Source: a virus
Taxonomy: Duplodnaviria; Heunggongvirae; Uroviricota; Caudoviricetes
DNA length: 16,560 nucleotides
Strand: one strand, 5' to 3'
Virus record (IMG/VR): IMGVR_UViG_2718218139_000004
Coordinates: 1-16,560 of that record
Positions 1-3,000 of the stretch are shown here, one piece after another. A program made the position numbers. Each line of letters begins with the position of its first letter. The stretch's first letter is position 1.

Positions 1-3000
1 TCATTTGTTGATTTCAATTTTGTCCCATTCTCTCCCTCGGCTGTCCCTATACCGCGCCGCCATTGAATCTGATTTATGTCCGAGAAGACGTTGAGCAAAC
101 TTATCGCCAATCTGATTGCGGTATAGTCTCGCCGACAGGCTACGCAGTTCATGGAATGTTGGCGGGTCTCCATCAAATGAGAGTCCAGATGCATTTCTCG
201 CCTTTGTAAAATACTTCGATACTGTTTTCGGGGAAAGTGGTTCGTGATGCGTTGATGCAATTATAGTGTCACTGCCGCTGGCCTCCCTGCATTTCTGTAG
301 TATATCAGCCAATGAGATATTGAGCGCGTCAATCGTTAGCGTCAGCGGAATGGCGAGCTTAGCCCCTGTTTTACCCTGTTCAATGTGAAGATGGTTGTCG
401 TTTATGTCTGACCATTTCATTTTGCACAAATCGCCGACTCTCTGACCTGTAACGACGGCCAAATCCATCGCAAGCCTCAGCCAGATTGGGAGAGGTTCGG
501 CTGCATGGTGAATCGCGACATACTCATTAGCTGTCAGCCTTGAGCGCCTTACTTCTGACTTTGCTGTGCGGGTTGCTGTTACCGGATTCGTAGCCACATG
601 CCCCTCGGCTATTGCCTCACGAAAAACGTCAACAAGGGTTGACCTGATTAATTTTGCGGAAGCCGTTTTACCTTCTGCTACGTAGGTGTTTAGCATTGCT
701 GCCACCTCTTTCGTTGATATGTCAGCGAGCGGTTTGTCCGGCAATTTTCTTCGGATTGCCCTGATTTTGCTGGCGTAGTCGAGTAGAGTTTTCAGCCTGA
801 TACCCCTCTCGCTGAGGATTGTTTCATATCGGCCAAGCCACGCATGAAGAGTGATTGCGTCAGCGCCTTTAATTCTGTCTATCAGTGACTCACGCCTGCT
901 CCCGGATAGCAACTCAATATTGGCCTGTATTGCTTCAGTGATTGCTATCCTCCTGTCTCGGCCTAATCCGAACTCTTTACCCGTCCTTGGGTCCCTGTAG
1001 CAGTAATATCCATTGTTTCTTATATAAAGGTTAGGGGGTAAATCCCGGCGCTCATGACTTCGCCTTCTTCCCATTTCTGATCCTCTTCAAAAGGCTACCT
1101 GTTACTGGTCGATTTAAGTCAACCTTTACCGCTGATTCGTGGAACAGATACTCTCTTCCATCCTTAACCGGAGGAGGGAATATCCTGCATTCGCGCACCC
1201 ATCGACGAACTGTTTCAAGGCTTCTTGGGCGTCGCTGGCGTGCATTCCACTCCTGAAGTGTCAAGTACATCGCAAAGTCTCCGCAATTACACGCAAGAAA
1301 AGCCGCATTGATGCGGCGATGGTAGGTCTGGATATCATTGAGCCATGAACAGGCCTCATCGAGTGTGAGGCTGTGGTTAGTCCTTTCGTAACTCGCTGAT
1401 TCTCCTGTAAGTCTCTGGTGCTTTGTTTCCGTGTATCTTCATTTCAGACTTCAACAGAGCAACGAGGGAATCCCATTCGTTGAGGATGCCTTTGAATGCC
1501 GGAACGCGCTTTGCAACCTTGTCGAATGAATCTCTGATTTCTGGAATCTTCTCAACAAGAGCAACGCATCGTCGGAAGTCTGCTGCGTCATGGGGAGCGC
1601 CGAAGTGATGACCATAGATATTCTTTTTCAGTCCACATGCGATTGAGGCAAGAGTTGCACTACTGATGCCGACATCGCCAGTCGATTGCCATTTCAAAAC
1701 CTTCATAGCCAAATCTGACATTTCTTGTCTCCATAAAACAAAACTCGCCGTAGCGAGTTCAGATAAAAGAAATCCCCGCGAGTGCGAGGATTGTTATTCA
1801 CCTTTGACGGCAAGTTGCAGGTTAGCCACGGTTAACTCCTTGCTGTGTGGCGTCGAGTAATAAATCCCACAACCGCTGAGAGCAATTTCCGCATGTACAG
1901 CGTTGACCCACAACGTTTATCGCGTTGCTGATTTCCGGCGTTACCTGTTTAGGAACCATAACCCAACCATCCGGAGTTACCGGAAGCGAGAACGGCAGCA
2001 CATCTCTGTGAACAAGTTTTTGCTGTGACAGGTTATCCAGAACTTTCTGTACTGCTGCATCACCGAATACACCAAGCGCATCTGCCATAACTCCTACAAC
2101 CTGATAAGCCTCAGCGCATACCGTGGAAACCATGAGCAAATGATGATTGATGGCTTATCAGAGCGTGGAAACGTCAATCACTGGCTGCTTAATGGCGGTG
2201 GCTGGTTCTTTAATCTCGATTACGACAAAGAAATTCTGGCTAAAGCTCTTGCCCATAAAGCAGATGAACTTCCGTTAATCATCGAACTGGTGAGTAAAGG
2301 AAAAAAATATGTCATCTGCCATGCCGATTATCCTTGTGATAAATACGAGTTTGGAAAGCCAGTTGATCATCAGCAGGTAATCTGGAACCGCGAACGAATC
2401 AGCAACTCACAAGACGGGATCGTGAAAGAAATCAAAGGCGCGGACACGTTCATCTTTGGTCATACGCCAGCAGTGAAGCCACTCAAATTTGCCAACCAGA
2501 TGTATATCGATACTGGCGCAGTGTTCTGCGGAAACCTCACATTGATTCAGGTACAGGGAGAAGGCGCATGAGACTCGAAAGCGTAGCTAAATTTCATTCG
2601 CCAAAAAGCCCGATGATGAGCGACTCACTACTGGCCACAGTTTATTGGTTTTCGTAACTGAGTCATTTTATTATTTTATTGCAACTTTTAATCTTTTATA
2701 GTGCGAAATAAATGGAGCTAGCATTCATTTCGCACTTTATGTTTTTGTTGGACTTATGTTATTTTGATTGAATTCAATTCAGTTAAAAAAAGAAGGTGAT
2801 TGCTCCATTTATAAATGAATAGTCATCCCCTGTCTTGAATTCTGATGTTACTTTATTAAATGCTAGTGTGAAGGCTACAGGTGCATACCCAATTGTTGCG
2901 CCAACTTGATATTCATCAACAGTTTTGTTTAGCGATACTGTTGTTTGTTTCGTCTGTATTGTTTTTCCTTCGAGAGTATAGTTGCGATTGACATCTCGTC

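Follow-up and report, generated by a model that had tools for sequence, protein, structure and literature searches.

A 16,560-nucleotide stretch of DNA, deposited as the virus record IMGVR_UViG_2718218139_000004 of IMG/VR (positions 1 to 16,560; the whole stretch is called the window below), is a degraded, defective (cryptic) lambdoid prophage of Escherichia coli. Near its left end, the 3' part of a leftward gene for a DUF550-family protein meets the 3' part of the rightward lambda phosphatase gene ninI at six shared base pairs, CGTGGA (2122-2127). With a probability of roughly 0.85, this join marks a single internal deletion suffered by a lambdoid prophage that was integrated in the E. coli chromosome beside mdtA. 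The first-pass annotation, made from the sequence alone, had described a deletion junction joining the int-xis arm to the middle of ninI. The deletion junction was upheld, and the left partner was corrected to an early-left DUF550 gene about 850 bp beyond xis, not int-xis itself.

Homology to lambda ninI was found by blastn to begin at window position 2122, which corresponds to lambda position 43440 and is the first base of codon 73 (Arg73); identity was 96.5% over 2122-2638. In megablast searches, dozens of lambdoid phages and some 1,300 E. coli genomes gave matches that started at the same base. An abrupt start of the phosphatase homology at RGNHEQ, around 2122, had been pointed out in the first-pass annotation, together with the absence of the N-terminal metal-binding third and a stop in the upstream frame, and all of these points were confirmed. 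The translation from 2122 begins RGNHEQMM and aligns end to end with residues 73-221 of the lambda phosphatase 1G5B (E 6e-99), and the in-frame sequence 5' of 2122 is unrelated and meets a stop. The ninI stub occupies 2122-2571 on the plus strand, contains codons 73-221 and the stop codon, and has its first in-frame ATG at 2140.

The sequence motifs of the phosphatase were searched for in the whole 16.5-kb window. GNHE (motif III, with Asn75 and His76) occurred once in a six-frame scan, at 2125, and neither motif I (GD.HG) nor motif II (GD..DRG) was present in any of the six frames; NinI residues 1-72, used as a tblastn query, had no match anywhere in the window. GDLHG and GDLVD(R/L)G lay within the first 72 codons in all of the intact ninI genes compared (7/7). 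The motifs correspond in lambda to Asp20/His22 (motif I) and Asp49/Arg53 (motif II), and we take Asp20 and His22 to be metal ligands and Asp49 the bridging ligand in the dinuclear metal and phosphate site of 1G5B. A dinuclear metal/phosphate site of the lambda phosphatase is described, at second hand, in PMC2190708. The 151-residue product of the stub matched no Pfam family at E<=0.001, so that it has no recognizable Metallophos domain, and PGAP/RefSeq calls the stub (2116-2571, plus strand) a pseudogene, "partial, missing N-terminus". To judge from its sequence, the plus-strand stub is a fragment of ninI by descent and would not be a functional member of the PPP-type Ser/Thr metallophosphatases. 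From the intact ninI genes of 90-3040 and E105, two other strains, it differed by 2 nucleotides over 450 and by no amino acid. This small divergence indicates that the deletion was recent relative to the divergence of the alleles.

The left side of the join was identified by the peptide encoded on the minus strand at 1822-2127/2133, which was identical at 101 of 102 positions to residues 145-246 of a 246-residue DUF550 protein of phage ev017. The intact ev017 protein matched PF04447 (dATP/dGTP pyrophosphohydrolase) at residues 42-137 with an E value of 8e-42, and the stub (1822-2127, minus strand, codons 145-246 of 246) matched no Pfam family, PF04447 included. Because only residues 145-246 are kept, the catalytic domain (42-137) is gone. 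In strain 2014C-3011, the stub is called a DUF550 pseudogene by RefSeq/PGAP (1822-2130, minus strand), again "partial, missing N-terminus".

The leftward open reading frame (ORF) at 1822-2139 had been said to begin in the same few bases as the phosphatase homology and to lack a ribosome-binding site, and this proved correct. Its two possible starts, TTG 2139 and ATG 2133 in the same frame, lie in sequence derived from the antisense strand of ninI. The ATG was made by the join, which placed the antisense of the ninI His76 codon (CAT, 2131-2133) in frame with the DUF550 C-terminal stub and gave rise to a 103-codon ORF. No Shine-Dalgarno sequence of the GGAG/AGGA type was found in the 30 nt upstream of ATG 2133 (minus strand ...CCATCAATCATCATTTGCTC-ATG), and a simple consensus scan detected no sigma-70-like promoter between 1000 and 2845 on either strand. 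A new promoter or an expressed fusion at the join was therefore rejected, as far as simple consensus scans go. The promoter scan suggests that both stubs are probably silent, and the 103-codon ORF initiated by ATG is probably meaningless, though gene callers may report it. Neither the ORF at 1822-2139 nor that at 2140-2571 should be annotated as a gene; both are stubs without function of their own.

The breakpoint was placed by alignment to lambda and related prophages, as the first-pass annotation had proposed. Homology of the left arm extended to 2127/2133 and that of ninI began at 2122, which left CGTGGA (2122-2127) as the overlap. The left references, namely the Stx1a phage EH2115, the O55:H7 strain CB9615 and phage ev017, all read ...GCGCATACCGTGGA-TA-AACCATCCGG..., and lambda and other ninI genes read ...GTACGTGGAAACCATGAGC...; the ninI of CB9615 also has CGTGGA at the breakpoint. 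The window reads ...GCGCATACCGTGGAAACCATGAGC... across the join. The adjoining bases AACCAT (2128-2133) are also present in the left parent with a 2-nt offset (CGTGGA-TA-AACCAT). The probability that a random join shares at least 6 bp is 0.0013. The join is not a product of chance, since each flank agrees with independent references at 99-100% as far as the junction and the identical junction recurs in seven separately assembled complete genomes. No insertion sequence (IS) element, IS remnant, target-site duplication, filler DNA or recombinase site was found at the join (2100-2140). At the level of sequence, the join carries the signature of short-homology illegitimate recombination. Such recombination is familiar in E. 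coli from spontaneous lacI deletions between short repeats and from the formation of lambda bio and gal transducing phages, and the window is like these cases in the large size of the deletion, the identity of a few base pairs at the endpoints and the lack of a signal of IS or site-specific recombination.

The lost genes were read from the thrW prophage of O55:H7 CB9615, which carries both breakpoint genes at intact length, in the canonical order, with a complete early region between them. The two copies of CGTGGA are 11,759 bp apart in this prophage and enclose ea22, exo, bet, gam, kil, cIII, ral, sieB, N, cI, cro, cII, O, P, ren, ninB, dam, ninE, ninF and ninG. The expectation that the join removes the immunity and replication genes and most of the nin region was thus borne out, with the recombination genes as a further loss. 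None of these genes was found elsewhere in the window: relocation was rejected because the 11.76-kb early segment of CB9615 gave no blastn match there, and the early region of phage 434 beyond the left-arm ORF likewise had no blastn match in the window. The DUF550 region of CB9615 is 99.3% identical to window 1722-2133. The CB9615 prophage is nevertheless a reference for structure and not the parent; it differs in integrase and insertion site and in Q and the late region, lacks lpxR, and has a ninI allele whose 3' end is divergent.

The native order on the right side is documented by the viable phage 434 (OL657226), whose right arm carries ninI, an N-terminal fragment of Q, lpxR, ylcG and a Q82-like Q in the order seen in the window, with 99.0% identity to window 2572-4210 and 96.7% identity over the ninI stub. 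Phage 434 has a full-length ninI (666 bp) and, upstream of it, a complete annotated pL-N-cI-cro-cII-O-P-ren-nin region, whereas the window has none of these. Since phage 434 works with the full ninI and early region, the arrangement in the window is the derived one.

A second internal deletion was found at 10946-10965, where terS is joined to a tail-fibre gene, by comparison with CB9615 and by the Pfam families Phage_Nu1 and Phage_fiber_C. Window 10301-10965 corresponds to positions 7316-7980 of the CB9615 prophage and window 10965-12000 to positions 27513-28548, and the window lacks, relative to CB9615, roughly 19.5 kb with terL, portal, head, tail, J and lom. The genes directly joined are terS (ORF 10430-10939) and a collagen-repeat tail-fibre gene (ORF 10854-11765). 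Because the closest complete genomes have IS2 at window position 10913 instead of this deletion, the window is a further-decayed or differently decayed variant.

The element is dead as a self-sufficient inducible phage, in agreement with the earlier statement that it could not be induced as it stands. It has no pL, pR, N, cI repressor, cro, cII, O, P or origin, the genes from terL through the tail are gone, and Q is now separated from any pR. The int and xis genes are intact in the window, and excision aided by co-resident prophages is conceivable. In O157 Sakai, other defective prophages are on record as receiving help of this kind from another prophage (PMC2669165).

The ancestor would have had the order int, xis, early-left accessory genes (including one of the DUF550 family), exo/bet/gam, kil, cIII, N, cI, cro, cII, O, P, ren, nin genes, ninI, truncated Q (Q'), lpxR, ylcG, Q, lysis genes and morphogenesis genes. 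Two copies of CGTGGA, one in the leftward DUF550 gene (about codon 144) and one in the rightward ninI (codons 73-74), would have been joined by RecA-independent short-homology recombination; candidate enzymologies are replication slippage (misalignment) and break repair by annealing. This would have removed about 11.8 kb and left two promoterless 3' gene stubs head to head, with pL, pR, the repressor, N, the replication genes and the origin lost. The predicted consequence for the element is that induction, replication and host killing are no longer possible and that the cargo (lpxR, a perC-like regulator, nleH and cif) is kept. We infer a single step, in the integrated state, by an enzymology of this kind; the breakpoint, its microhomology, the sequences of both parents, the genes lost and the distribution of the join are direct findings.

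The distribution of the join was studied with a 130-bp probe across it, which matched completely at 100% identity (130/130) in 7 of 5,426 complete E. coli genomes. Sources of the carriers were human stool (USA), cattle and bovine faeces (Okinawa, Japan). In the three carriers whose flank was read, the element was adjacent to mdtA, the same two "partial" pseudogenes were called and the same remnant was present. In 2014C-3011, mdtA and an ibs toxin gene flank the element, and these two genes are neighbors in K-12; this setting therefore indicates a simple insertion with internal loss and not a chromosomal rearrangement. Window 1-10913 is 99.3% identical to strain 2014C-3011 and four other complete genomes. 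Coverage of the window by any one complete E. coli genome is 82% at most, and the exact configuration of the window is not in the complete-genome set. A search with the left arm returned only the seven junction carriers at 100% and then relatives at 97% or less.

It had also been considered that related intact prophages might show this arrangement as their native gene order. None was found: no record among 50,697 phage records spans the join or covers at least 80% of 1300-2700, which rules out a native arrangement among these records, and the genomes with the join that were read all carry the same remnant. Decay continued after the deletion. An IS3-family element lies inside int in two of the seven junction carriers (2013C-4974 and OkiPb01713), which represents a later step, and IS2 is present at terS in five genomes. 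The exact junction can serve as a lineage marker in E. coli genomes. The join is an ordinary deletion scar already annotated as pseudogenes in public genomes, and all that is added here is a breakpoint placed to the base, the 6-bp microhomology at it and the use as a marker.

The same structure could have been reached by other routes. Decay in several steps, with at least two successive deletions, some of them perhaps mediated by IS elements, and with the CGTGGA join as only the last, is unlikely. It draws on the IS3/IS2-associated losses of the same region in the sister lpxR prophages of 90-3040, E105 and RM9873 and on the decay by IS3 and IS2 that is still going on in the element itself, but the join lacks any IS remnant, target-site duplication or foreign filler (2100-2140), its flanks are 99-100% identical to their references right up to the microhomology, and no intermediate form was found in the 5,426 genomes. 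A hybrid origin, in which a phage with an HK022-type int recombined illegitimately with a 434/Sp3-like phage, either at co-induction or between resident prophages, is considered very improbable. When the flanks were matched separately, as the first-pass annotation had suggested, the left arm was closest to HK022, the Stx1a phage and the thrW-type prophage of O55:H7, and the best matches of the right arm were phage 434 and lpxR prophages of the ybhC type; many of these strains also carry multiple lambdoid prophages, and as many as 10 places in one genome can match. Yet lambdoid mosaicism alone accounts for arms with different best matches, and a recombinant devoid of the genes for replication and immunity would be unable to multiply as a phage. 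Exchange between prophages at two loci, moreover, would rearrange the chromosome, whereas the flanks of the element in 2014C-3011, mdtA and ibs, are neighbors in K-12. An artefact, whether from faulty assembly or from a sequencing frameshift that masks a full-length phosphatase gene, has almost no credibility: only the abrupt break of homology speaks for it, and it is contradicted by the identical 130-bp junction in seven independent complete assemblies. The frameshift in particular, which the first-pass annotation had kept in mind, is ruled out by the lack of an upstream GDxHG or GDxxDRG motif in any frame and by the lack of a tblastn match to NinI residues 1-72 in the window.

Several observations weigh against the single internal deletion in a prophage at mdtA. 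An undeleted version of the same prophage, with the same int allele and at mdtA, was not found among the 5,426 complete genomes, so that the before/after pair is missing and the ancestor has to be reconstructed. The nearest left arms outside the seven carriers are only 95-97% identical, and the one examined, in a Stx-type prophage, is at torS. The different best matches of the two arms, normal as they are for lambdoid mosaics, leave room for a hybrid origin. The exact microhomology is just 6 bp, which supports the class of mechanism without proving it, and one step looks the same as nested deletions of which the last join remains.

The element is a classic example of a defective lambdoid prophage. 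Among the closest known systems is Sp3 of Sakai O157:H7 (CP-933K family), which was scored as lacking repressor, antirepressor and replication functions, as having disrupted recombination genes and as undergoing no excision or replication (Asadulghani et al. 2009, PMC2669165). Sp3 and the element in the window are both lambda-like and defective, and sister prophages at the ybhC site share the ninI-Q'-lpxR-ylcG-Q module, the homology of Sp3 being taken from these ybhC-site relatives. The window differs from Sp3 in its HK022-type int, in the mdtA site instead of ybhC and in its own IS-free junction inside ninI. The cryptic lambdoid prophages DLP12, Rac and Qin of K-12 also keep int/xis and/or Q-lysis-nin fragments together with morons and have lost immunity, replication and morphogenesis genes. 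Their sites, cargo and junctions are different from those of the window.

The right arm contains an older, unrelated scar at 2568-2638 (plus strand), which consists of the first approximately 24 codons of a lambda-type Q; lambda homology stops at 2638, where this gene is cut by the lpxR moron. RefSeq records it as an antiterminator fragment, "missing C-terminus" (2568-2639, plus strand), the same "Q N-terminal fragment" is annotated in phage 434, and it is common to five sister prophages. An AT-rich island (GC 23-40% across 2600-4100) follows and holds lpxR on the opposite strand, after which come ylcG and the Q82-type Q. The viable phage 434 (99.0%) and every sister prophage inspected have the older scar and the moron (2568-4210) as well.

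The sister prophages with lpxR, which sit at ybhC or mlrA, were found to have lost the early region in other ways. The int gene is joined to a dam fragment in O103:H2 12009, early-left genes are joined to a ninG fragment in a dog isolate, and an IS3 adjoins a ninG fragment in E105. In 90-3040, an int fragment is followed by IS2 and IS3 and then dam, and in O145 RM9873, whose prophage also carries nleH, cif and espJ, an IS3 adjoins ren. The six loci examined, the window included, thus had six different int-to-nin junctions, some bounded by IS elements and some not. The lpxR module was found in about 617 complete genomes, of which at least 112 keep a 434-type block from O to lpxR; this number is a lower bound on intactness, since other replication modules would not match, and no strong conclusion is drawn from it.

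It is possible, if rather doubtful, that the loss of the early region in the window is one of many independent convergent losses in a family of lpxR/cif/nleH prophages. If this were true, selection would repeatedly immobilize phages with virulence cargo and spare int/xis and the end with Q, lysis genes and the cos-proximal region, and a remnant with int, xis and the cos-proximal terS end might be excised and mobilized by helper prophages. The repeated loss of the core with retention of the cargo fits prophage domestication and is not new in kind. The element is a further documented case of lambdoid prophages that lose the lethal and mobile core and keep cargo of benefit to the host. The main value of the result lies in correct annotation: this cif/nleH/lpxR element is no inducible phage but a locked-in remnant.

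The remaining features of the window were assigned as follows. The left end of the remnant is an intact tyrosine integrase gene of the lambda/HK022 type (1-1074, minus strand, 357 amino acids) with the Pfam domains Phage_integrase, Arm-DNA-bind_1 and SAM-like; it is adjacent to mdtA and annotated as integrase in related genomes. It is of the HK022 type by length and domain layout, its allele is WP_032204680.1, and the carriers inspected have the element beside mdtA. The 95%-identical left arm in O103:H2 FWSEC0007 sits at torS. The difference in site suggests either an int variant with a different attB or the use of a secondary site. Next to the integrase lie the gene of a 72-residue excisionase (1052-1270, minus strand; Pfam Exc, E 3.9e-41) and a conserved early-left hypothetical gene (1377-1721, minus strand) with 96-97% DNA identity to its homologues, HK022 gp32 and an ORF of phage 434; its 114-residue product matched no Pfam family.

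The lpxR moron, encoding a lipid A 3'-O-deacylase, occupies 2783-3742 on the minus strand (Pfam LpxR, E 6.8e-40). The Q82-type late antiterminator Q was found at 4133-4906 on the plus strand (Pfam Phage_antiter_Q, E 1.4e-90), with its start annotated near 4217 in 2014C-3011 and phage 434. RefSeq gives the order in 2014C-3011 as int, xis, a hypothetical gene, the DUF550 pseudogene, the phosphatase pseudogene, the antiterminator fragment, lpxR, ylcG, Q, lysis genes, a perC-like gene, terS and then the effector genes cif and nleH, and Pfam scans agreed with these identities; int, xis, Q, lysozyme, Rz and terS were recognized by Pfam in the window itself, and the chromosomal border was mdtA in the three carriers examined. 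The cargo kept in the remnant includes a PerC-family regulator (9415-9729), an NleH-type effector kinase (12133-13023) and Cif (13240-13986). Relative to 2014C-3011, the window has the nleH-cif block (11886-13900) in inverted orientation. At the right end of the window, two copies of an IS3-family transposase orfB of equal length were found in inverted orientation (14411-15229, minus strand, and 15742-16560, plus strand), both with rve domains and identical Pfam scores.

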